NCBI GenBank assembly: GCA_021299635.1
Contig: JAJTFA010000003.1
Span: forward strand, 145,795-209,794
Direction of reading: 5' to 3'
Length of the DNA: 64,000 nt
Source: Sphingobacteriales bacterium
Lineage (GTDB): Bacteria; Bacteroidota; Bacteroidia; UKL13-3
The position numbers and the translations under genes are program-made. Below are positions 2,631 through 12,152 of this stretch, one piece after another; position 1 is the stretch's first letter; every line of letters starts with the position of its first letter. Under the pieces are notes generated by a model. That model was not told the DNA's origin. It saw only the letters and a program-made list of their open reading frames with translations, and made no database searches.

Positions 2631-2766
2631 GAGAAGCGAGAGACGAGAAACGAGACAAAAGAAGAAAGACCGCTGTGCTCAAAGAGGAAAGAAGCGAGAT
2701 GTGCGACAAAATTTTCTAATTTTTCAATCTTCTAATAACAAACCCGCAATCACAACCCGCAATCAC
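2631..2766 (+). repeat. Intergenic composite repeat, copy A (purine-rich gagaaacgaga module plus tctaat/caatct short-period module)
   Basis: gcgagagacgagaaacgagac...gaaagaccgctgtgctcaaagaggaaaga...gatgtgcgac followed by ttttctaatttttcaatcttctaataacaaaccc. The reverse complement recurs at 8024-8140. The tctaat module recurs at 11221-11345. Confidence 0.7.
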
Positions 2767-4040
2767 TCTCCTTCTTTTACCGGAAGAATATCACTGAGTT
2801 TTACACTCAATTTAATTTCGCCAGTTAACAGATATTTAAGCATTGGTCCGGCAAGAATAGAAGTAAGCACTGCCATTACCACCAAGGCAACAAACAATGG
2901 CAGGGTAATGAGTCCGGCCTGAAGGGCAAGCAAGCCTAATACAATTTCCATGGCTCCGCGTGCATTCATACCAAAACCAACAGCCAAGGCTTGTTTAACG
3001 GTAAGCTTTCCCCACAGGGCACCAAGTCCTGCACCCAGTAATTTTGTTACAACCGCAATACCGGTTACTATCAATACCAGAACAAGATCAAAGTTGGCTA
3101 TAAAATCAACTTTAAAACCAATGAATACAAAAAACAGCGGTGCAAAAATATTGGTAATAAACTGATGAATAATATCTCTCGTCTTTTCATTTAAGTGAGC
3201 AGAATCGCCAATGGCTATACCCATAATAAATGCACCGAAAATGGCATGAATGCCAATTTTTTCTGTGAAAGCAGCACCTAAAAAAGCAAAGCCCAAGGAG
3301 AAGGCAAGCACCCCACCGGGCCAACTTAAGTTGCGTTGAGCCCAAGGCAGTGATTTGTTGATGAGGATGCGTCCGGCAGTAAGTATCACAACGGCATACA
3401 ACAACGTTAAGCCTAGTGTATTCAAAAATTCATAAGAGCTGGTGCCACTATGCATCATGCCTAAAACTACGGAAAAAAGAATCCAGCCAATTACATCATC
3501 AAACATGGCAGCTGCAATGATTATCATGCCGATTTTGGTTTTAAATAAATCAAGATCCATTAAGGTGCGTGCAATTACCGGAAGCGCGGTAATGGCCATA
3601 GCTGTGGCAAAAAATAAACTAAAAACCAGTTGGCTGCTTTGAGCCCCATCTCCAAAATAGGGGAATAGCATATTGCCCGAAAAATATCCTAAGGTGAGCG
3701 TAGATATTAAACCTACAAAACTTGTTTTAAGGGCTGTTTTACTTTGTTGCCTTATCACAGAAAATTCAACTTCCATACCTGCAGCAAACAGCAGCATAAT
3801 AACAGAAACAGTGCTGATGCCATTTAGCACCAAACCAACATGGCCTTGTGTGGTAAAGACAACTTCATTGAGCTGAGGGAAATATTTACCCAGCAAGCTG
3901 GGTCCGAGGCAAATTCCGGCCAATAACTCGCCCACCACCAAAGGCATTTTAAGTTTTCTGAAAAATTCACCTAACAACCTACCCGCAAGCAGCATGATGC
4001 CAATTGCAACCAGAAGATTGATGGTTTCGTTATGGTTCAT
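2763..4040 (-). CDS. Cation:proton antiporter (CPA2/Kef-like Na+/H+ exchanger family)
   Basis: 425 aa, polytopic and hydrophobic throughout, with an N-terminus typical of this family (LLAGRLLGEFFRKLKMPLVVGELLAGICLGPS). Confidence 0.8.
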   Translation of the reverse strand: MNHNETINLLVAIGIMLLAGRLLGEFFRKLKMPLVVGELLAGICLGPSLLGKYFPQLNEVVFTTQGHVGLVLNGISTVSVIMLLFAAGMEVEFSVIRQQSKTALKTSFVGLISTLTLGYFSGNMLFPYFGDGAQSSQLVFSLFFATAMAITALPVIARTLMDLDLFKTKIGMIIIAAAMFDDVIGWILFSVVLGMMHSGTSSYEFLNTLGLTLLYAVVILTAGRILINKSLPWAQRNLSWPGGVLAFSLGFAFLGAAFTEKIGIHAIFGAFIMGIAIGDSAHLNEKTRDIIHQFITNIFAPLFFVFIGFKVDFIANFDLVLVLIVTGIAVVTKLLGAGLGALWGKLTVKQALAVGFGMNARGAMEIVLGLLALQAGLITLPLFVALVVMAVLTSILAGPMLKYLLTGEIKLSVKLSDILPVKEGE

Positions 4041-4052
4041 TGTGCCGGCTTT

Positions 4053-4928
4053 TTAATCATCTATTCTTGAATGTATAATCATTAAATCGCAAGGCAAATC
4101 GGCCAATGCATATTCAATATCATGAGGGAAAACACGGTCAATAACATTGAGTTTGGTATCCGGTGAGTTAAGCACCAGTAAATCGGCTTTATTATCACGT
4201 GCATATTTGGTAATAACAAATCCGGGTTTGCCTTCAAGCCTTTCTATATTTACTTTCAGATTTCCGCAATCTGTACAACGCAAAATTTCGTCTAGTTTTT
4301 CTTTTTCATGCTTCAGTACTTTCTCGCGGTTGCTATCTGCTTCATTATCGGTAAAAGCATCAGAGCGTATAAGCGCAAGTTTGCCCGGGTCTTCTTCCTG
4401 TATTACATCTACCATGCGTGCATGGGCGGCTTTCGCTACATAAATGGCAGCCTCAATGGTGTTTACGGTTTTGGGATTATCACTTCCTTCTACCACAATG
4501 CGTTCAAATGGCCTCGAGAGTAGATCAGGCTCTCTAAGCATTAGGATGCTGCATTTGGCTTTGCGGCAAAGTTTGCGTGCCACTGACCCCAAAAAATACT
4601 TCAGTAAGCTTTCTTTTTCCAAAGCACCTGCTACCAGTAAATCAACCTGCCGGGCTTTACATACCTCCAGAATTTTATCAACCGGATCGCCTGTTTCCCA
4701 AACCACTTCGTTTCCTAGCCCATTTAACTGAAACCGTTGCAATTGTTCATTCAGGTATGATTCCTGTTGCTGGTCGTGGCTACCCACATGTATAAATAGC
4801 AGCGGGGCTTTAAAAGTATCCTGCAACCTTTTTGATGCAGCTAAAATAGCTTCGGTATTAGGCGAAAACGCTACTGCAACTGCAATTCTTTCAAACGGAT
4901 AAGCAGCTTTTTTCTCAATATTACTCAT
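4053..4928 (-). CDS. Universal stress protein, tandem Usp domains
   Basis: 291 aa with two Usp-like halves (RIAVAVAFSPN...; ADLLVLNS...PCDLMIIH). Adjacent to the antiporter on the same strand. Confidence 0.7.
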   Translation of the reverse strand: MSNIEKKAAYPFERIAVAVAFSPNTEAILAASKRLQDTFKAPLLFIHVGSHDQQQESYLNEQLQRFQLNGLGNEVVWETGDPVDKILEVCKARQVDLLVAGALEKESLLKYFLGSVARKLCRKAKCSILMLREPDLLSRPFERIVVEGSDNPKTVNTIEAAIYVAKAAHARMVDVIQEEDPGKLALIRSDAFTDNEADSNREKVLKHEKEKLDEILRCTDCGNLKVNIERLEGKPGFVITKYARDNKADLLVLNSPDTKLNVIDRVFPHDIEYALADLPCDLMIIHSRIDD

Positions 4929-5019
4929 GCATACAAAAATAGAAATCTCTGCTTACCAAATGCAGATTAATTTTCAGTTATGTAATTGTGCGGAGGTTTA
5001 TTAAACTTGCCACTTTATC

Positions 5020-7071
5020 ATGGTAAAAAAAGATTTATTAATAGAGGCTTACTCCCTAATGTGCACGGCAAGGGCCATGGCAGAAATGTATGATGCCAAC
5101 CGCAATATTTGCAAGTATGTACACTCTACCTCCAAGGGACATGAAGCCATACAGTTGGCCACAGGCATGCAGCTGAAACCGTATGATTATGCCGCACCCT
5201 ACTATCGTGATGAATCCATGCTGCTGGGCATGGGGCTAAGTCCGTATGAGTTAATGTTGCAATTGTTGGGTAAGGCTGATGATCCGTTTTCAGGTGGGCG
5301 CACGTATTATGCACATCCCAGCCTAAATAGAGAAGAGTTCCCGAAAATGCCACACCAAAGCAGTGCCACCGGTATGCAGGCTATTCCGGCCACCGGTATG
5401 GCTCATGGCATAGCTTATAAAGAGCGGGAAGGAATTAATAAAAAAGGAGAATATCCGGTAGTGCTTTGTTCTTTCGGAGATGGCTCAATAACAGAAGGAG
5501 AGGTTGCCGAGGCTTTTCAAATGGCTGTGCTTAAGCAACTGCCCATTATCTATCTGGTGCAGGATAACGAGTGGGGAATTTCGGCCAGTGCAGATGAAAT
5601 GCGTGCCATGGATGCCTATGAATATGCAGCAGGCTTTAAAGGATTAAAACGCATGCGGGTTGATGGAAGTGATTTTGTTGAGGCATATGAAGCCATGACA
5701 GAAGCTATTGATTATGTAAGAAATAACAGAAAGCCCATATTGGTTCATGCGCGTATTCCTTTGCTGGGGCATCATACATCAGGTGTTAGAAAGGAATGGT
5801 ACCGAAGTGAGGATGATTTGGAGAAACACGCCAAAGATGATCCCATTCCCAAAATGCGCAAGCTATTACTTGAGATAGGATTGGAAGAAAAAGAGTTAAT
5901 TGAAATTGAAAAAGACGCTGCCAATAAAGTTGATCAACAATTTAAGCAGGCTGTAGAAGCTGCAGAGCCAGACCCTGCAACGGTTGAAGAGCATGTGTTT
6001 ACACCAAGCGGAGCAACGGAAGAAATGGGCAACCGTAAACCCAATGGAAAAGAACCGGTGGTGATGGTGGATGCGGCATTGCATGCCGTGGATGAGTTGA
6101 TGGCAAGGCATCCGGAGTGTATTTTTTACGGGCAGGATGTGGGTGCACGTTTAGGCGGGGTTTTTCGCGAAGCGGCTACCTTGGCCAAAAAATATGGCGA
6201 TAACCGCGTGTTTAATACACCTATACAAGAAGCATATATTGTAGGCTCTACGGTTGGTATGAGTGCCGTAGGTGTGAAGCCGATTGTAGAAATTCAGTTT
6301 GCCGATTATGTGTGGACCGGAGTAAATCAGCTGGTATGTGAAATAACCAAATCGTGCTACCTAACCATGGGAAAATATCCGGTAAGCGCCATTATTCGCA
6401 TACCCATTGGTGCTTATGGAGGCGGTGGGCCCTACCACAGCGGTAGTATTGAATCCACTTTGCTTACGCTTAAAGGAATAAAAATAGCTTATCCAAGCAA
6501 TGCTGCTGATATGAAGGGCTTGATGAAGGCAGCCTATTATGATGGGAACCCGGTCATTATGTTAGAGCATAAGGGATTGTACTGGAGCAAAAATCCGGGA
6601 ACGGAAGGTGCAAAATGCATTGAGCCGGATGAAGATTATATATTACCTTTTGGCAAGGCACAAATTGTATTGGAGGCAACGGATGATGCGGTGGATAATG
6701 GCCAATCATGTGCTGTAATAACCTGGGGAATGGGGGTATACTGGAGCATGGCGGCAGCTAAGAGATTTAATGGCAGTGTTGAAGTGTTAGACTTGCGCAC
6801 ATTGCAGCCACTGGATGAGGATATGATTATGCAAATGGCAATGAAACATGGCAAGGTAATGATTGTAACAGAGGAGCCATTGCTTAACTCGTTTGCTGAA
6901 TCGCTTGCAGGCCGCATTTCACAGCAGTGCTTCCGATACCTGGATGCACCGGTAGCAACAGTGGGCTCAAAAAATTTACCGGCTGTAGCATTGAATATGG
7001 GTTTAGAGGCAGCCATGCTGCCCAATGCAGACAAGGTAGCAGAGAAAATAGAAGAACTACTGAAATATTGA
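5020..7071 (+). CDS. Thiamine-diphosphate-dependent 2-oxoacid dehydrogenase E1 component, fused alpha+beta subunits
   Basis: 683 aa. The N-terminal half is E1-alpha-like (GDGSITEGEVAEAFQMA, YLVQDNEWGIS). The C-terminal half is E1-beta/transketolase-like (FNTPIQEAYIVGSTVGMS, DLRTLQPLD). Confidence 0.8.
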   Translation: MVKKDLLIEAYSLMCTARAMAEMYDANRNICKYVHSTSKGHEAIQLATGMQLKPYDYAAPYYRDESMLLGMGLSPYELMLQLLGKADDPFSGGRTYYAHPSLNREEFPKMPHQSSATGMQAIPATGMAHGIAYKEREGINKKGEYPVVLCSFGDGSITEGEVAEAFQMAVLKQLPIIYLVQDNEWGISASADEMRAMDAYEYAAGFKGLKRMRVDGSDFVEAYEAMTEAIDYVRNNRKPILVHARIPLLGHHTSGVRKEWYRSEDDLEKHAKDDPIPKMRKLLLEIGLEEKELIEIEKDAANKVDQQFKQAVEAAEPDPATVEEHVFTPSGATEEMGNRKPNGKEPVVMVDAALHAVDELMARHPECIFYGQDVGARLGGVFREAATLAKKYGDNRVFNTPIQEAYIVGSTVGMSAVGVKPIVEIQFADYVWTGVNQLVCEITKSCYLTMGKYPVSAIIRIPIGAYGGGGPYHSGSIESTLLTLKGIKIAYPSNAADMKGLMKAAYYDGNPVIMLEHKGLYWSKNPGTEGAKCIEPDEDYILPFGKAQIVLEATDDAVDNGQSCAVITWGMGVYWSMAAAKRFNGSVEVLDLRTLQPLDEDMIMQMAMKHGKVMIVTEEPLLNSFAESLAGRISQQCFRYLDAPVATVGSKNLPAVALNMGLEAAMLPNADKVAEKIEELLKY

Positions 7072-7125
7072 ACCGGGTTTGATTAATGAGCGAAAAGATA
7101 TATTTTCGCATCCCGTTTTCATTTA

Positions 7126-7199
7126 GGGCCCATAGCTCATTCGGTTAGAGCATCTGACTCATAATCAGGGGGTGCTTGGTTCGATCCCAAGTGGGCCCA
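7126..7199 (+). tRNA. tRNA with CAT anticodon (elongator Met or lysidine-modified Ile2; not initiator-like)
   Basis: Hand-folded cloverleaf: acceptor gggccca/tgggccc, D arm gctc-attcggtta-gagc, anticodon arm tctga-ctCATaa-tcagg, T arm cttgg-ttcgatc-ccaag, discriminator A. The three G-C pairs typical of the initiator anticodon stem are absent. Confidence 0.9.
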
Positions 7200-7208
7200 C
7201 AACGTGGG

Positions 7209-7239
7209 ACCGGGCAGCGCAGGCTGACCCGGTTTTTTT
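7209..7239 (+). terminator. Rho-independent terminator after the tRNA
   Basis: Stem accggg(7209-7214)/cccggt(7228-7233) followed by a T-run. Confidence 0.6.
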
Positions 7240-7364
7240 ATGTAAAAAAACCGTTATTGGGGAAGAAGTTTATCCCGAATTGCGGAGGTAAGATTTTTAG
7301 GGGCAAACATCTTCGGACGACCCCTCAGATAAACTATTCTGCAAACATTAATTTACGCAATACT

Positions 7365-7988
7365 ATGTCAACAATATCTACAGTTATTTTCGATTTGGGT
7401 GGTGTAATTCTGAATCTTAATCAAGACCTTACACTTCGTGCATTTCAGCGCTTAGGTCTGGATTTGTCGCAAGTAAATTTTAACAGTCATATTTTTACCG
7501 ATTTTGAAACAGGTAAAATTTCTGCATCTGACTTCAGAATGGGTATTAGAAGCCATTTAAAACAGAATATTTCTGATGAGGCCATTGATACCGCATGGAA
7601 TGCTATGTTGCTAGATTTGCCTGAGCATAGACTCAAAGCTATTGAGCAACTTAGAAAAACGCACAAGGTATATTTACTAAGCAATACCAATAGCATCCAT
7701 ATCGATGCCTTTAATTCTTACTTTAAACAGCAATATCAGCCTGAAAGGTGGGTTCAGTTATTTGATAAGATTTATTACTCCTATGAAATAGGTCTGCGTA
7801 AACCCAATACCGATATTTATGATTTTGTAACAACCGATATTCAAATACAACCTGAACATTGTTTGTTTATTGACGATAGCTTAGCCAATATCAATGGAGC
7901 TGCTGATGCAGGTTTAAAAACAATACATGCCTTGGAGCCTCTTGGCGAAAAGCTTTGGAGGCAATTAAAAACAGCGCTTACAGAATAG
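7365..7988 (+). CDS. HAD-superfamily hydrolase (subfamily IA-like)
   Basis: Motif I VIFDLGGVIL, motif II LLSNTN, motif IV FIDDSLANINGA. The start is set at ATG 7365. The longer ORF from 7176 overlaps the tRNA and its terminator. Confidence 0.75.
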   Translation: MSTISTVIFDLGGVILNLNQDLTLRAFQRLGLDLSQVNFNSHIFTDFETGKISASDFRMGIRSHLKQNISDEAIDTAWNAMLLDLPEHRLKAIEQLRKTHKVYLLSNTNSIHIDAFNSYFKQQYQPERWVQLFDKIYYSYEIGLRKPNTDIYDFVTTDIQIQPEHCLFIDDSLANINGAADAGLKTIHALEPLGEKLWRQLKTALTE

Positions 7989-8023
7989 GGTTATTAAGTT
8001 TGTTTTTACGGGTTGGTCGCTAA

Positions 8024-8140
8024 AATTATAAGATTGAAAAATTGAAAGATTAGAAGATTGAAAGATTTCATTCTCTCACATCCCATGTCTTTCCTCTTTC
8101 AGCGCAGCGGTCTTTCGTCTCGTTTCTCGTTTCTCGCCTC
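8024..8140 (-). repeat. Intergenic composite repeat, copy B (reverse complement of copy A)
   Basis: The plus strand reads agattgaaaaattgaaagattagaagattgaaagattt then tctctcacatcccatgtctttcctctttcagcgcagcggtctttcgtctcgtttctcgtttctcgcctc. Reverse-complemented, it aligns with 2631-2745. Confidence 0.7.
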
Positions 8141-8399
8141 TTTCATATCATTCAAACCTCCCAATGCCTTATGTGTTACATCTACTAGTAAAAATTTTAC
8201 TCTTTTCCCAGCTGAAAATCAAATTGTATTTCAAAGTACTGAAAACCACATTTATTAATAATTCTCCACAAGCACTGTTGCAGTAAATATAGGATGTGAA
8301 AAACGCAATGGCAATAAAATTAAGGCTTTCAGCCATTGTGCATGAAAAGGTTTTAATTGGACACCACATGGTTTTTAATTTTGCATCTTGTTTTAAATC

Positions 8400-9716
8400 A
8401 TGAATACTTCACAAGAATTTATATCCATACAAAGGCAGGTTTTAAGCACCTTAATTCAGCACCCGCATTTATTTGGGCGGTATGCAGAAAAAATACGTTT
8501 AGTGTATTTTACTGAGCCTGCTTTTAAGCAATTGCTCTTGGTCATGCGTTCTTTAAATCAAGCCTATGCAACATTTGATCTTCACTTGCTGAGAAATGAA
8601 TTGAAGAAAGAATCGGAAGAAGCAAATCTTGTCTTGGTTGATGAAATGGCTAATGAGATTGCGGAGCAAGCAGATTTAGAAATTAAGTTGAATGCTTTAA
8701 AGGAGTATACCACTCGAAAGATGTTTTTTGAGTTGGGCGAAACACTTTTTAATAAAAGCATGGATTCTGATATACCTGTTGCTGATTTGCAAACGACCTT
8801 ATCAAATTGTATGCAAGTATTATCTGGTATGCAATCCGTTGGCAATACCGAAAGCTTGAAAGAAATTTTGAATCGAATTAAAATCTCTTCTGAGTCAGAT
8901 GAGTCTTATACTTGGTTCGACTCCAATCTGCAGGCGCATTTGGGAAGCATTGAGTCGGGAGAATTAATTGTAATTGGTGCTCGACCAGGTATTGGCAAAA
9001 CGGCATTCTTGCATACACAACTGCTTCATTTGGCATCTCATCATCAAGCACCAGTCGGTTATATCAATATTATAGAAAACGAACGTGCGCTGATTGCAAA
9101 GTTGCTTAAGGCTTCAGGTGAAGATTTAACAAAAGCGGAAAACGAGAATTTATCTTTAAACGGCAAAACCTGGCCTATATATCTATGCAGTAATTTAGGA
9201 GGTACCCAATTAAAAGATATCAAAAATGCGGCAAACTTTCTTAAGTATAAATATGATATAAAAGTGTTGGCAATTGACTGTTTTCAGCAAATTACCTATC
9301 AGTCTAAAATGAATTATCGTGATTATGAATTAGGCATGGTTGTCCAGGAATTGAAAAAAATAGCCAAAGAACTTGATATAGCCATCTTACTAACCTCACA
9401 ACTCAACAGATCAGCTGAAAGAAGAGGTTATGTGGCGATTCCAATGCTTTGCGACCTTAAAGAAACCGGTTATTTGGAGGAGGTAGCAGATAAGGTTTTG
9501 CTGCTTCACCGATATGCCTATTATGGTATAAATGTATATGAAGATGGTACGCCTACCGGTAATGACAGCAATGTTTTGATAGCTAAAAATAAGTATGGAA
9601 AATCGGGTAAGGTGTTATTATCATTTGATAGTAAGTTGGGGAAGTTTTTGCCTAAAGCACAACCACTGCCTATGGTGTTTGAGTTTCCGGCAAACAGGCT
9701 AACCGATTTGGAATAA
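8400..9716 (+). CDS. Divergent DnaB-family (RecA-fold, hexameric-type) helicase, candidate retron partner/effector
   Basis: 438 aa with an ATG start. It has a DnaB-N-like helical N-terminus. Motifs are Walker A GARPGIGKT (nt 8976-9002), Walker B-like VLAIDCFQQI, a DnaB-like LTSQLNRSAERRG segment and CDLKETGYLEEVADKVLLLHR (compare DnaB SDLRESGxIEQDAD). It seems shorter than the replicative DnaB of this phylum as I recall it, and I do not see the N-terminal signature I associate with replicative DnaB. A TAATTTTG motif (8376-8383) lies 17 nt upstream. The stop is 18 nt before the retron ncRNA. Confidence 0.75.
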   Translation: MNTSQEFISIQRQVLSTLIQHPHLFGRYAEKIRLVYFTEPAFKQLLLVMRSLNQAYATFDLHLLRNELKKESEEANLVLVDEMANEIAEQADLEIKLNALKEYTTRKMFFELGETLFNKSMDSDIPVADLQTTLSNCMQVLSGMQSVGNTESLKEILNRIKISSESDESYTWFDSNLQAHLGSIESGELIVIGARPGIGKTAFLHTQLLHLASHHQAPVGYINIIENERALIAKLLKASGEDLTKAENENLSLNGKTWPIYLCSNLGGTQLKDIKNAANFLKYKYDIKVLAIDCFQQITYQSKMNYRDYELGMVVQELKKIAKELDIAILLTSQLNRSAERRGYVAIPMLCDLKETGYLEEVADKVLLLHRYAYYGINVYEDGTPTGNDSNVLIAKNKYGKSGKVLLSFDSKLGKFLPKAQPLPMVFEFPANRLTDLE

Positions 9717-9734
9717 ACATATTCGGTGCACCAT

Positions 9735-9880
9735 TACACAAATACAATGAAGACATGCTAAAGTCTTGTAACTGTTGTTTCTGCAGTTGATTTAAAATAG
9801 CAGGTGGCAGCCAACGAACAAGTTTCACTTCGTTCACTTGTTCGTTGCTTCAGGGGGTTAAATAGATTGTATTTGTTGTA
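9735..9880 (+). ncRNA. Retron msr/msd non-coding RNA (template and primer for msDNA)
   Basis: a1 9735-9748 pairs with a2 9866-9880 (11 perfect bp acaaatacaat/attgtatttgt, plus 3 bp after a 1-nt bulge). G9749 directly follows a1, the position of the priming guanosine. Two short msr-like hairpins lie at 9750-9767 and 9770-9788. A perfect 12-bp msd-like stem caacgaacaagt(9812-9823)/acttgttcgttg(9836-9847) has a 12-nt loop. The RNA ends 2 nt before the RT ORF. Confidence 0.8.
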
Positions 9881-9882
9881 AT

Positions 9883-10917
9883 GTGTGCCCGATTTTTAAC
9901 GATGAATTTTTGGTGATGAGATCACTTGAAGAACTTTTAAAAATATTAGCAATTTCTTCGGAGCTTTTGCAACAATTACTTGCAGCACCGGAGTATACGA
10001 TATACCATATTTCCAAAAAAAGCGGAGGCACACGCACCATTCAGGCGCCTCAGGGATTGTTGCGTCAAACACAGGTTCTGCTGGCAAAGTACCTTCAGAC
10101 AGTTTATTCCCGCCATCACTTGCCATGCATACATGGATTTGTTCCATCAGCCGGTTTGCTAAAATATGGAGTTCTGTCAAATGCAGTACCTCATTTAAAT
10201 AAGCCCTTTGTATTAAATATGGATATTAAAAACTTTTTTGAAAGTATAACGGCAAAAAAAGTGAAGAAAAGCTTGTGTGAATTTCCATATTATTTTAATG
10301 AAGAAGTGGCAACAGCTATTGCATTGTTGTGCACGTATCAAAAACAATTGCCTACAGGCGCTCCTACTTCTCCCGTATTATCAAACATGGTATTTTATAT
10401 TCCGGATGTGGCTTTGTTGCAATGGATAACAGATGTGAACGAGACAAAGCAAATTGATGAAACAGGCATTAGTTATACCAGATATGCAGATGATTTAACT
10501 TTTTCAGGATCGGCAAATCTGGTGCTTTCACTGCAGGCTCGCATCATATCATTTTTTGCTACTGAGGGATTTGAAATCAATGCAAAAAAAACAAGGGCAC
10601 AAACACCTCATGGACCTCAATGGGTGACGGGAATAAAGGTGAATGAAAGATTAAACATTAGCAGGTATTATATCAGAAACCTGAGAGCTGTCATACATCA
10701 GATGCGGGTTCATGCTGCAGAAGCTGTTGTGTGCAGGTATTTAAAATTACCGGCTACAACGCAAATAAATACTGCGCATGTAAAAAAGATGTTGAGCAGT
10801 GTACAATCAAAAATAGCATGGGTAGGAATGGTAAGAGGCAAAGCAGACCCGATATATCTGCGTTTACAAACTCAATTTAATGTAGCAAGGGAGGTGATGC
10901 TGGTAAAAGAATCTTGA
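9883..10917 (+). CDS. Retron-type reverse transcriptase
   Basis: 344 aa. RT motifs in order: KKSGGTRTIQAP, HGFVPSAG, NAVPHLNKPFVLNMDIKNFFESI, LPTGAPTSPVLSN, YADD (nt 10483-10494), GFEINAKKTR, and the retron-characteristic VTGIKVN. There is no maturase, endonuclease or other C-terminal domain. The start is GTG 9883, or alternatively ATG 9916. Confidence 0.85.
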   Translation: MCPIFNDEFLVMRSLEELLKILAISSELLQQLLAAPEYTIYHISKKSGGTRTIQAPQGLLRQTQVLLAKYLQTVYSRHHLPCIHGFVPSAGLLKYGVLSNAVPHLNKPFVLNMDIKNFFESITAKKVKKSLCEFPYYFNEEVATAIALLCTYQKQLPTGAPTSPVLSNMVFYIPDVALLQWITDVNETKQIDETGISYTRYADDLTFSGSANLVLSLQARIISFFATEGFEINAKKTRAQTPHGPQWVTGIKVNERLNISRYYIRNLRAVIHQMRVHAAEAVVCRYLKLPATTQINTAHVKKMLSSVQSKIAWVGMVRGKADPIYLRLQTQFNVAREVMLVKES

Positions 10918-10927
10918 AGGGGAATGC

Positions 10928-11200
10928 GGGAATTGGGTATTAGGTTTTGGGGTTTAGGTTTATGCAAGTTAATATTCAACAATGAGTATGCAGCTGTTAG
11001 CTGTTGGCCTTTGGCTGTTTGAGATTTTTTAACGGAGTAGCTAAAACTTGGGAATTGGGTGTTAGGTTTTGGGGTTTAGGTTTATGCAAGTTAATATTCA
11101 ACAATGAGTATGCAGCTTTTGGCTGTTGGCCTCTGGCTGTTTGAAGTTTTTTAACGTAGTGTCTAATGCTTGGGATTTGGGTATTAGGTGTTGATGATTT
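10928..11200 (+). repeat. 122-bp tandem direct repeat, about 2.2 copies
   Basis: gggaattgggtrttaggttttggggtttaggtttatgcaagttaatattcaacaatgagtatgcagc... starts at 10928 and again at 11050, nearly identical. A third truncated, diverged copy starts near 11172. No ORF. Confidence 0.8.
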
Positions 11201-11220
11201 GCGATTAAATTTAAATATCT

Positions 11221-11345
11221 AAATTACTCAATCTCCTAATTTTCTAATCTTTTAATCTTCTAATAACAAACCTTCTAATCTTTCAATCTTCTATTAACAA
11301 ACCTTCTAACCTTCTAATCTTTCAATCTTTTAATCTTCCAATCTT
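11221..11345 (+). repeat. Short-period tctaat/caatct repeat block, copy C of the intergenic repeat family
   Basis: ttctaatcttttaatcttctaataacaaaccttctaatctttcaatcttctattaacaaaccttctaaccttctaatctttcaatctt... has the same orientation as copy A and is inverted relative to copy B. It abuts the pyrF stop codon. Confidence 0.7.
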
Positions 11346-12152
11346 CTAATCTCCTACATACTGCGCCATTTCATCTGCCATTTTTTTAGCTTCGGCTGCA
11401 GCAGCTTCGGCAAAATCTTTACCTGATGAGGCATAGATGATGCTGCGTGAGGCATTGATAAGCAATCCGCAATCCTGATTCATGCCATATTTTACCACAT
11501 CGGCCAGACTGCCTCCTTGCGCACCCACACCGGGTACCAATAGAAAATGATCGGGGATGAGTTTACGAATATGAGCCAATTCCTCTGCTTTGGTTGCACC
11601 AACCACAAACATCAGGTTGCCTGTATTACCAATTTGTGTGGTAGTTGTAATCACATGCTCATATAACTTTCGGTTGCCAATAAGTTGCTGTTCATAGTCG
11701 GCACTGCCCGGATTGGATGTAAGCGCAAGTACAATGCCCCATCTGTTGTCGTAGGCAAAGAATGGTGCAATAGAATCTTTACCCATGTATGGTGCCAGTG
11801 TTACGGAATGAAATGGCAATGTTTCAAAGAATGCGCGTGCATACATATTGCTGGTATTGCCAATATCTCCTCTTTTGGCATCTGCTATGGTAAAGATATT
11901 TTCCGGTATGTGAAACAGGGTGCGCTCCATGCTTTCCCAACCCTTAACGCCATTGGCCTCATAAAATGCAGTGTTGATTTTATAACTAACACAGTAATCT
12001 TTGGTGGCATCAATAATGGCCTTATTAAATTCAAATACAGGATCATCCAGGTGTAATAAGTGTGACGGTATTTTTTTAATATCGGTATCTAGGCCTACAC
12101 ATAAAAAACTTTTTTTTAGTTTAATCTGCTTTATGAGTTCTGTTCTGTTCAT
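11346..12152 (-). CDS. pyrF: Orotidine 5'-phosphate decarboxylase (type 2)
   Basis: FLCVGLDTD, ADAKRGDIGNT and LLVPGVGAQGG motifs. The start is set at ATG 12150-12152 (MNRTELIKQI...). The longer ORF would overlap the upstream gene. Confidence 0.85.
   Translation of the reverse strand: MNRTELIKQIKLKKSFLCVGLDTDIKKIPSHLLHLDDPVFEFNKAIIDATKDYCVSYKINTAFYEANGVKGWESMERTLFHIPENIFTIADAKRGDIGNTSNMYARAFFETLPFHSVTLAPYMGKDSIAPFFAYDNRWGIVLALTSNPGSADYEQQLIGNRKLYEHVITTTTQIGNTGNLMFVVGATKAEELAHIRKLIPDHFLLVPGVGAQGGSLADVVKYGMNQDCGLLINASRSIIYASSGKDFAEAAAAEAKKMADEMAQYVGD

Follow-up and report, generated by a model that had tools for sequence, protein, structure and literature searches.

A diverged DnaB-like protein as the likely partner of a retron in Bacteroidota

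In the 64-kb stretch of DNA analysed here, hereafter the window, the gene at positions 8400-9716 (+) encodes a 438-aa protein with the full DnaB fold, which is likely a far-diverged paralog of Bacteroidota DnaB, dedicated to its role as the protein partner of a retron. It is followed on the same strand by a retron non-coding RNA (msr/msd) and a retron reverse transcriptase (RT), and the locus resembles the DnaB_C-associated, type XI-like retrons. It is well supported that the three parts form one conserved module, which changes chromosomal site and recombines across lineages. Well supported as well is that the protein keeps the whole protomer fold along with the residues that bind nucleotide (Lys/Thr of Walker A, Asp of Walker B), and that residues of hydrolysis and translocation carry fixed changes (arginine finger to Lys or Thr, DNA-loop Arg to Lys and, as aligned, catalytic Glu displaced by one). 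The locus probably points to a little-studied retron type in which a modified helicase ring is the working protein and the function is anti-phage.

Retron classes rest on partner proteins, and a DnaB-like partner is found in none of the 13 established types. An association with DnaB was flagged by a single 2026 preprint from genome surveys, where its meaning is left open (bioRxiv 10.64898/2026.05.14.725207). The locus described here is minimal, with two genes, one RNA and no other candidate effector, and it offers a well-defined RNA and a natural allele series. The protein is also a biochemical lead, being a helicase copy in which the nucleotide-binding site is kept and the arginine finger lost. 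If it acts on the replisome or mimics DnaB, retron immunity would be tied directly to DNA replication, and the protein would be a new kind of effector or sensor. Moreover, the compact RT and RNA could be of interest for retron-based genome editing in Bacteroidota.

Linkage of the DnaB-like gene to a retron RT

The locus is ordered dnaB-like gene, msr/msd RNA, RT. The original prediction paired the gene with an RT, and a retron RT does lie directly downstream (9916-10917, +), encoding 333 aa from a conserved ATG with no fused effector domain. The mechanically called RT ORF begins before this ATG, at GTG 9883. The best RT profile is RT-Protease_XI of PADLOC (1.2e-82, 276 bits, profile positions 5-321 of 510), followed by RT-TIR_XII and then RT-Toprim_I-C, and all NCBIfam retron models stay under cut-off for this RT. 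The RT motifs are NAVPH at aa 89-93 (NAxxH), YADD at aa 190 and VTG at aa 237. Pfam detects RVT_1 only, the C-terminal trypsin-like protease of type XI being absent.

The RT is located about 200 bp downstream of the dnaB-like gene in each of the 11 family loci with downstream DNA, and the interval holds a conserved msr/msd RNA that shows covariation. A DnaB_C gene is also found directly upstream of all six of the more distant RT relatives (36-40% identity), compared with only one of 80 still more distant retron RT loci used as a control, and the RT of that single locus is the closest to that of the window. Three short or odd DnaB_C proteins (P0095, P0115 and P0045) do not adjoin an RT (0/3); the linkage follows the RT clade and not every non-canonical DnaB_C. 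The RT-linked proteins include C-domain-only relatives of 271-363 aa, and because these have no N-domain, a mechanism based on primase binding is unlikely to be general. The sites of the module differ, with pyrF adjoining here and urocanase in locus L007, so that at least two unrelated chromosomal sites are occupied.

The msr/msd RNA

The predicted retron non-coding RNA (9724-9891, +) is closed by a stem of the inverted repeats a1 (9724-9748) and a2 (9866-9891) and contains two msr hairpins (9750-9767 and 9769-9789) and an msd hairpin (9812-9847). Its minimum free energy is -57.4 kcal/mol (z -5.06), its 37 consensus pairs are 97% paired, and compensatory changes are seen at 8 pairs, compared with 0-1 in slid controls. 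With a covariance model trained on the family, a homologous element is detected upstream of the RT in two more distant loci, L047 (E 2e-4) and L049 (E 0.03). Position 9749 (+) holds a candidate branching G, but this priming G is uncertain because the position is an A in L013 and L015. The Rfam search returned two tRNAs only, with no retron RNA family at gathering score.

Domains and predicted fold of the DnaB-like protein

The ORF of 438 aa and the motif strings first quoted for it are present on the forward strand. DnaB_C is detected by Pfam at 1.6e-38, and the DnaB N-domain match is weak (4.5e-5). The AlphaFold model (pLDDT 81) predicts a two-tier protomer consisting of an N-domain head, a helical hairpin, a linker helix and a RecA domain, and full-length DnaB protomers (4esv, 9dls, 7t21) are matched at TM 0.75-0.82 (Foldseek). 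From Pfam and the model, the N-terminal domain comprises aa 1-145 (8400-8834, +), a helical head and helical hairpin with helices predicted at aa 4-84, 90-120 and 127-144. It is followed by a predicted linker helix at aa 153-163 (8856-8888, +), as suggested by the model and its match to the DnaB protomer fold, and by the RecA-like C-terminal domain at aa 176-416 (8925-9647, +), delimited by the PF03796 match and alignment to 4nmn and 2vye. The C-terminal tail (9648-9713, +) carries the conserved motif FEFPxNRLxDLE and is modelled at low confidence (pLDDT 56-59). A related motif, Px[NS]Rxx[DE][LF], is common to the other RT-adjacent DnaB-like proteins.

The N-domain is present in the predicted DnaB protomer fold, and the linker, originally described as shortened, is not obviously missing. 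Two initial impressions were accurate: the protein is shorter than Bacteroidota replicative DnaB (438 vs 509-530 aa), and its N-terminus is only loosely canonical ('QRQVLSTL' vs 'EEAVLGA'). By reading of the sequences, the length deficit would mostly correspond to a missing N-terminal extension and a shorter C-tail. Within the family, the N-domain is the most variable part, with 48-56% identity compared with 65% in the C-domain. PADLOC assigns the protein to no known defence family, its sole match being a weak one to mad8 (3e-4, 48 residues); PADLOC has no model for a DnaB-like retron partner.

Active-site residues

The motifs of an active helicase were initially thought to be intact, which holds for Walker A and the Walker B Asp but not for the arginine finger. 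Walker A (GARPGIGKT; 8976-9002, +) contains K200 and T201, both invariant in the family, as is Asp293 of Walker B (9276-9278, +), found in IDCFQQ where the canonical sequence is DYLQL. In Bst/Gk DnaB, R420 of the beta-hairpin AKQR420NG serves as the arginine finger (R439 in Vc). It aligns with Lys398 (9591-9593, +), in AKNKYG of the 438-aa protein, and the trans-acting arginine finger is therefore absent by alignment to Bst/Gk DnaB. Across the family this position is occupied by K in 8 of 14 members and by T in the other 6. The string LTSQLNRSAERRG, previously taken for the arginine-finger region, is motif H3, which contains the sensor Gln334. In the sequence alignment, the canonical catalytic Glu of SLE(M), where strand 2 ends, corresponds to I225, and an invariant E226 lies one residue on. 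The DNA-loop Arg of DLRESG is replaced by an invariant Lys354, and the beta-hairpin Lys is retained (K396, equivalent to K418).

In GkDnaC, the substitution R420A abolishes both ATPase and unwinding (PMC3236778). Loss of the arginine finger is recurrent in the wider clade, and four RT-linked relatives (L047, L049, L050 and L051) keep the finger and the canonical motifs, so that loss of hydrolysis is no general requirement of the class. RecA uses lysines, and Lys can partly stand in for an arginine finger. Given the Lys at the finger position, the protein of the window may still hydrolyse ATP.

Compared with replicative DnaB (TIGR00665; 4esv, 2vye, 4nmn, 7t21), the protein has the same two-domain protomer fold, and Walker A and B, the H3 motif SQLxR and the beta-hairpin Lys are present. 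However, identity is 19-24%, under the family cut-off, and the finger is K/T, DLRESG has become DLK[EDG]T, DYLQL has become DCFQQ, 'GxPTGF' has become 'TWFD' and the catalytic Glu, as aligned, appears shifted by one. In addition, the protein has neither an N-terminal extension nor the PF tip seen in the Bacteroidota tail, and the family is patchy and RT-linked.

Family relationships and exchange between lineages

The DnaB-like family is tiny, with about 15 clusters at 47-100% identity, and its source is uncultured freshwater Bacteroidia MAGs. It has three representatives among 1.84 billion representative proteins, and the tight family was detected in just 9 among 185,579 genomes of species representatives. 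Bit scores fall from 315 to 127 between the family and the 509-530 aa replicative DnaBs of Bacteroidota. In a small neighbour-joining tree, with bootstrap values computed on unrooted splits, the family forms its own clade (100%) apart from that of the Bacteroidota replicative DnaBs (99%), and all RT-adjacent DnaB-like proteins are grouped together with moderate support (67%). Viral contigs yielded no close relative of either the DnaB-like protein or the RT.

Over a tract at 9540-10919, the DNA matches L005, a locus from a different lineage, at about 100% identity. The match is 100% across the RT, the RNA and the last part (3') of the dnaB-like gene, compared with 85-93% for the flanks and only 45-79% for the 5' 1.1 kb of the gene, and the two DnaB-like alleles are 58% identical. 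Judged from this identity pattern, the tract is a recent exchange comprising the dnaB-like 3' end, the RNA and the RT. Such a mosaic is not the behaviour of an essential single-copy helicase.

If the gene were the chromosomal replicative DnaB, merely short and fast-evolving, with the RT a coincidental neighbour, one would expect the full DnaB fold with Walker motifs and no second dnaB nearby, and none is present within the 64-kb window. We nevertheless give this explanation next to no credence, since the protein reaches 155.8 bits with the replicative DnaB equivalog TIGR00665, whose cut-off is 385.25 (NCBIfam), and stays far under the cut-offs of all other replicative-DnaB models of NCBIfam. 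It also stands outside the Bacteroidota DnaB clade, at 22-24% identity to it, and has lost the finger whose mutation is fatal to GkDnaC. Replicative status is further at odds with the rarity of the tight family, with an RT and a retron RNA that always adjoin at different chromosomal sites, and with alleles 58% identical where the flanking DNA is 85-93% identical. A remnant of a replication module from a phage, plasmid or ICE, whose DnaB-like or P4-type helicase came to lie beside the RT, is very improbable; a phage or ICE remnant was also considered in the original prediction. The flanking genes are housekeeping (HAD hydrolase, pyrF), mobile-element genes were not seen, and the gaps at 7990-8399 and 10918-11345 hold only short ORFs, none notable and none an extra effector candidate. 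Eleven loci retain the two genes as a unit, and the tail motif is common to Bacteroidota chromosomal DnaB. What speaks for a leftover module is that DnaB_C proteins at 26-33% identity do occur in phage-like or mobile contexts (L133 beside an N6/N4 methylase, L134 among small ORFs, and phage contigs L045 and L046) and that GC is slightly low; against it, the best relative in IMG/VR is 26% identical, with none close, and the scores with phage_DnaB (TIGR03600, 121.7 vs a cut-off of 498.65) and the SPI-7 type (NF040583, 90.2 vs 655) are far under their cut-offs. Altogether, the sub-cut-off score, the separate clade, the RT linkage in 11/11 loci and the L005 mosaic agree with the proposal first made for this gene, namely an accessory paralog acquired with the RT and not the replicative helicase.

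Comparison with known retrons

TXI_noncan_h, a candidate lineage of type XI-like retrons whose accessory proteins are DnaB_C, is described from genome surveys only (bioRxiv 10.64898/2026.05.14.725207, May 2026). Set beside that lineage by its description, the locus is alike in having a protease-less RT nearest to type XI, an adjacent and separate DnaB_C protein, Bacteroidota among the hosts and an a1/a2-flanked predicted RNA, which lies 22-104 bp upstream of the RT in the preprint and has its a2 end 25 nt before the ATG here. However, the DnaB_C gene of the preprint is mostly downstream (+1 in 14/20 loci), whereas it is upstream here and in every sampled relative, and the preprint hosts are mainly gut-associated Bacillota and Bacteroidota as opposed to the freshwater Bacteroidia MAGs of the present family. 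The active site of DnaB_C is analysed here and not in the preprint. Table S2 of the preprint also contains five aquatic/anthropogenic Bacteroidota RTs with DnaB_C neighbours, labelled low-confidence 'type1-C3' and left undiscussed (bioRxiv 10.64898/2026.05.14.725207), and these are probably the group studied here.

As the classification is cited in the preprint, type XI retrons carry a trypsin-like protease as a fusion to the RT (Mestre et al. 2020, cited in bioRxiv 10.64898/2026.05.14.725207). RT-Protease_XI is the best RT profile here, but the RT ends at 333 aa with no protease domain, and its partner is a separate DnaB-like ATPase. The locus also resembles the three-part retron defence systems in which the effector is a separate ATPase or nuclease (types I-A and I-B, for instance), which are operons of RNA, RT and one accessory protein, although the partner here is a hexameric-helicase homolog without a nuclease, transmembrane, NAD-consuming or protease domain. 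In Ec86/Sen2-like retrons, the toxin is controlled by RT-msDNA.

Proposed function and its alternatives

Our best guess is a DnaB-like ring under msDNA control, with slow or no hydrolysis, that stops replication when a phage attacks. The RT would reverse-transcribe the msd segment of the RNA to give msDNA, and the DnaB-like protein would form a ring or spiral binding ATP and single-stranded msDNA. With ATP hydrolysed slowly or not at all, this ring would act as a switch or clamp and not as a motor. By analogy with the retrons studied so far, the RT-msDNA complex would hold the DnaB-like partner inactive until phage infection leaves the msDNA damaged, modified or titrated. Once free, the protein could block the DNA replication of both cell and phage, through co-assembly with the replicative helicase, trapping of its loader or trapping of single-stranded DNA at the fork, and the infection would be aborted. 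A more specific and rather doubtful idea is that the retrons of this clade captured a copy of the host replicative helicase as an immune component, used either as a decoy for phage hijacking or as an msDNA-gated, dominant-negative ring that stalls forks. If true, the output of the retron would do without nuclease, membrane or NAD-depleting activity, and a core replisome protein would for the first time be the basis of a defence system.

Because it has no recognisable killing domain, the DnaB-like protein could be a sensor rather than an effector. The same retron would then expose it as a decoy of the host helicase, bound by phage helicase loaders or DnaB inhibitors, and this binding would make the RT or msDNA toxic. 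Several features suit a decoy: a recognisable killing domain is absent from the whole module, the full DnaB surface is kept while the motor residues are crippled, variation is greatest in the N-domain and hairpin and entire alleles are exchanged, as expected of a surface in an arms race, and many phages hijack DnaB by their own loaders, such as lambda P (6bbm, 9oa1). We regard such a sensor as unlikely, however, since the C-domain-only relatives (271-363 aa) would mimic just part of DnaB and no toxic output of this RT is known. To our knowledge, retrons examined to date have the non-RT protein as their effector, which also counts against a sensor. It is improbable that the protein serves the retron itself, by unwinding or chaperoning the RNA/DNA template or in msDNA synthesis or copy number, with no role as a defence effector. 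By its order the gene shares a transcription unit with the RNA and RT, the msr-msd duplex is a possible substrate for a helicase fold, and a replication-related or structural role of DnaB_C is suggested by the preprint (bioRxiv 10.64898/2026.05.14.725207). However, the motor residues are degraded instead of preserved, and allele swapping with a patchy distribution is defence-gene-like. We also know of no helicase used by the known retron RTs in making msDNA, which is a further argument against a helper.

Base composition, repeats and promoter

The dnaB-like gene and the RT were initially described as AT-rich. Their GC is indeed lower than in the immediate flanks, but neither is an outlier among the 40 ORFs of the window, with 0.371 for the dnaB-like gene (z -1.2) and 0.388 for the RT (z -0.5) compared with 0.402 +/- 0.026, and GC, GC3 and codon usage of both genes are within the 40-ORF spread. 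Composition was therefore dropped as a sign of foreign origin. Arrays of an 8-nt repeat that bracket the module were considered as element ends and rejected, as they are absent from the family loci of other lineages; the same arrays also border a neighbouring invertible block, and are thus a feature of the genome and not of the retron. A scan for sigma-70 promoters and terminators gave nothing above chance. TAnnTTTG is the promoter consensus of Bacteroidota, and a pattern search located a possible -7 box of this type, TAATTTTG, at 8376-8383 (+), 17 nt before the start codon of the dnaB-like gene and with a TTG about 19 nt upstream.

Gene content and conservation of the module

The DnaB-like gene (8400-9716, + strand) encodes a protein of 438 aa, and its translation bore out both the ORF and the motif strings quoted in the original prediction. 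In Pfam, the match to DnaB_C is strong (1.6e-38, aa 176-416) and that to the DnaB N-domain is marginal (4.5e-5, aa 9-93). The protein scores 155.8 bits against TIGR00665, the curated replicative-DnaB model, below its cut-off of 385, and falls far under the cut-offs of the phage_DnaB and SPI-7 island models. The next gene encodes a retron RT (mechanical ORF 9883-10917; 333 aa from the conserved start, ATG 9916) with the motifs NAVPH, YADD, and VTG. In PADLOC it best matches RT-Protease_XI (1.2e-82), RT-TIR_XII, and RT-Toprim_I-C, and in these fusion profiles the matched part is the RT portion only. Both genes had been described as AT-rich, which holds against their immediate neighbors only: GC is 0.371 for the DnaB-like gene (z -1.2) and 0.388 for the RT (z -0.5), compared with 0.402 +/- 0.026 in 40 window ORFs, codon usage of both is unremarkable, and neither measure sets the DnaB-like gene apart.

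The 200-nt spacer between the two genes is predicted to adopt a textbook retron RNA fold, with a long closing stem formed by the a1 and a2 inverted repeats (9724-9748 and 9866-9891), two small msr hairpins (9750-9767 and 9769-9789), and a long msd hairpin (9812-9847). Its minimum free energy is -57.4 kcal/mol (z = -5.06 vs shuffles). The consensus structure from nine related loci contains 37 pairs, with 97% of cells paired; compensatory double changes occur in 8 pairs, compared with 0-1 when partners are slid by 1-3 columns, and the observed covariation score was reached by no shuffle. No Rfam family matches the spacer RNA. A candidate priming G lies at 9749, directly after a1 (column 38 of ncRNA alignment A2), but because two family members (L013 and L015) have an A at this position, the branching G may be elsewhere.

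Of 5.8 billion protein clusters searched, only about 15 are close relatives of the DnaB-like protein (47-100% identity, 432-443 aa), referred to here as the window family, and the score then drops from 315 to 127 bits at ordinary Bacteroidota replicative DnaB. The latter are 509-530 aa long and about 25-34% identical to the DnaB-like protein, which is indeed the shorter one, as had been proposed. When 1.84 billion representatives were searched exhaustively with HMMER, three window-family representatives exceeded 430 bits and the next tier scored 219-259 bits. Family loci were drawn from collections of genomes, metagenomes, and assemblies, and in 11/11 that reach far enough the DnaB-like gene is followed by the RT at a distance of 195-215 bp; two further loci, ending at contig edges, are outside this count. 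The pair neighbors pyrF both in the window and in L005, a locus of a different lineage, but urocanase in L007. Altogether, the view that the DnaB-like gene, the msr/msd RNA, and the RT constitute one conserved module is supported. The tight family occurs in only 9 of 185,579 species-representative genomes, all uncultured Bacteroidia or Chitinophaga-like MAGs, several of them from lakes and reservoirs, and no member was found in IMG/VR. One locus, L012, also carries a second retron-like RT (1068-2081, - strand; 30% identical to the window RT), which lies shortly before its DnaB-like gene and is encoded on the other strand.

Fold and active site

In an AlphaFold model built from a 68-sequence alignment (pLDDT 81), a helical head at the N-terminus is followed by a helical hairpin, a linker helix (aa 153-163), and a RecA-like domain. 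With Foldseek, the entire model aligns to the DnaB protomers 4esv, 9dls, 7t21, and 8a3v (TM 0.75-0.82); the modeled protein therefore has both the N-domain and the linker, the latter suspected earlier to be shortened. Read from the sequences, the termini account for about two thirds of the shortfall in length relative to Bacteroidota DnaB, through a missing N-terminal extension and a shorter tail.

The helicase motifs had been considered intact, and this stands for Walker A (invariant GxRPGxGKT in the family, conserved in canonical DnaB) and for the invariant Asp293 of Walker B (IDCFQQ vs canonical DYLQL). It does not stand for the DNA-loop arginine of canonical DLRESG, replaced by invariant Lys354, nor for the arginine finger; the segment so named is motif H3. 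The actual finger, R420 in canonical AKQR420NG, corresponds to K398 in AKNKYG and is K in 8/14 and T in 6/14 family members. The sensor glutamine (Bst Q362) is Q334, with H or N in 3/14 members, and the catalytic glutamate of canonical SLE is aligned to I225, an invariant E226 lying one residue further. Lysine can partially substitute for an arginine finger, as in RecA. In Bst and Gk DnaB, R420 is the arginine finger, located on a beta-hairpin and paired with K418 (bioRxiv 10.1101/2024.11.09.622779), and the R420A mutation abolishes ATPase activity and unwinding (PMC3236778). The equivalent of K418, K396, is invariant across the window family. The finger is present in four more distant RT-linked relatives (L047, L049, L050, and L051), is N in a fifth (L048), and in next-tier representatives is frequently K, T, N, or S. 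Together, these residues suggest that nucleotide binding is preserved and that fast trans-activated hydrolysis probably is not.

Wider RT relatives and origin of the DnaB-like protein

Stand-alone relatives of the window RT at 35-43% identity are numerous, and in 6/6 looked up the RT is directly preceded by a DnaB_C gene in the same orientation. Of the six encoded proteins, three are full length (449-461 aa) and three are without the N-domain (271, 350, and 363 aa). In a control set of 80 more distant retron RT loci on viral contigs, only one had a DnaB-like gene within 3.5 kb, and its RT is the one nearest to the window RT. No RT was found beside three unusual DnaB_C proteins that the initial search had returned and that are not near the window's RT clade; their contexts are GmrSD plus an AAA ATPase, a methylase, and small ORFs. 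One of them, P0095 (277 aa, DnaB_C only), lies between the GmrSD_N protein and the AAA ATPase (L132, 293-5068) and may represent another defense-island use of the domain.

In a small, distance-based neighbor-joining tree, the window family (monophyletic, 100%) is set apart from the Bacteroidota replicative DnaBs (monophyletic, 99%), in line with the dedicated paralog first proposed. All RT-adjacent DnaB-like proteins group with moderate support (67%; 83% without L050). The motif Px[NS]Rxx[DE][LF] is common to their C-termini, and many of them end in the PF of Bacteroidota chromosomal DnaB, which suggests that a copy of a host dnaB was captured and not a phage helicase. A canonical dnaB is presumably present elsewhere in the source genome. 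The replicative C-termini (P0016-P0060) run from S[KR]MND through an acidic stretch to PF, like the SSB C-terminal tip; RT-linked copies (L047, L049, and L051) keep a related motif, often with PF, and PF is gone in the window family.

Full-text literature searches returned one relevant paper, a May 2026 preprint describing TXI_noncan_h, a candidate lineage of protease-less type XI-like retron RTs (10.64898/2026.05.14.725207). A separate DnaB_C gene, its role called unclear, accompanies 20/29 of these loci, and an RNA flanked by a1/a2 is predicted to precede the RT by 22-104 bp; Table S2 further lists, without discussion, five Bacteroidota RTs of aquatic or anthropogenic origin that neighbor DnaB_C, typed low-confidence 'type1-C3' (10.64898/2026.05.14.725207). 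These five probably belong to the group of the window RT. Genome surveys had thus already documented the DnaB_C-retron association. However, the DnaB_C gene of TXI_noncan_h is mostly downstream of the RT (10.64898/2026.05.14.725207), whereas that of the window is upstream. New here are this upstream order, the far wider spread among RT relatives, the likely Bacteroidota-DnaB origin, the degradation of motor residues, and allele swapping within the module.

Possible mode of action

In studied retrons, the RT makes msDNA, RT-msDNA holds a partner protein in check, and phage interference with the msDNA releases it. By analogy, the window RT would synthesize msDNA, RT-msDNA would restrain the DnaB-like partner, and phage interference with the msDNA would free it. 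Judged from its sequence, the partner would form rings and bind ATP and ssDNA, its hydrolysis being weakened. A block of replication is the most plausible outcome, for which rings mixed with replicative helicase subunits, trapping of the loader, and clamping of ssDNA are candidate routes; primase capture is unlikely as a general mode because some relatives lack the N-domain. A serious alternative to such a block is that the DnaB-like protein serves as a decoy sensor for phage proteins targeting DnaB. msDNA production, toxicity, and defense are predicted functions of the module.

Exchange within the module and local rearrangements

The flanks of L005 are 85-93% identical in DNA to the window, and identity rises to about 100% in a tract at about 9540-10919 that takes in the 3'-most 60 codons of the DnaB-like gene together with the RNA and the complete RT. 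Over the 5' 1.1 kb of the DnaB-like gene, identity is only 45-79% in DNA (58% in protein), a divergence far greater than that of the flanks. The pattern is reversed in another family locus, L009 (DnaB-like protein 85% identical, RT 59%). These mosaics indicate recent exchange and allele swapping, by which the module recombines internally and moves between lineages; such behavior fits an accessory, probably defense-related element rather than an essential helicase.

A 122-nt tandem repeat (10928-11193; 2.2 copies, 91% identical) directly 3' of the RT stop codon is mostly divergent or missing in L005 and suggests no function. Arrays of 8-nt tandem repeats (AGATTGAA-like) flank the module in inverted orientation (8022-8068, +; 11207-11358, -), with one more unit at 2718-2730 (-). 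The window contains 18 matches, compared with 3.8 expected, and the repeats are absent from window-family loci of other lineages. A 5.3-kb block (c. 2720-8020), holding genes for a Na/H exchanger, Usp, an E1 dehydrogenase, tRNA-Met, and a HAD hydrolase, is inverted in L005 (242-5730); the 8-nt repeat arrays lie at its borders, and the retron is at one border in both genomes. Within this block, the mechanical ORF 7176-7988 overlaps tRNA-Met (CAT) (7126-7200), and calls in matching public contigs place the true start of the HAD hydrolase gene at ATG 7365 (207 aa).
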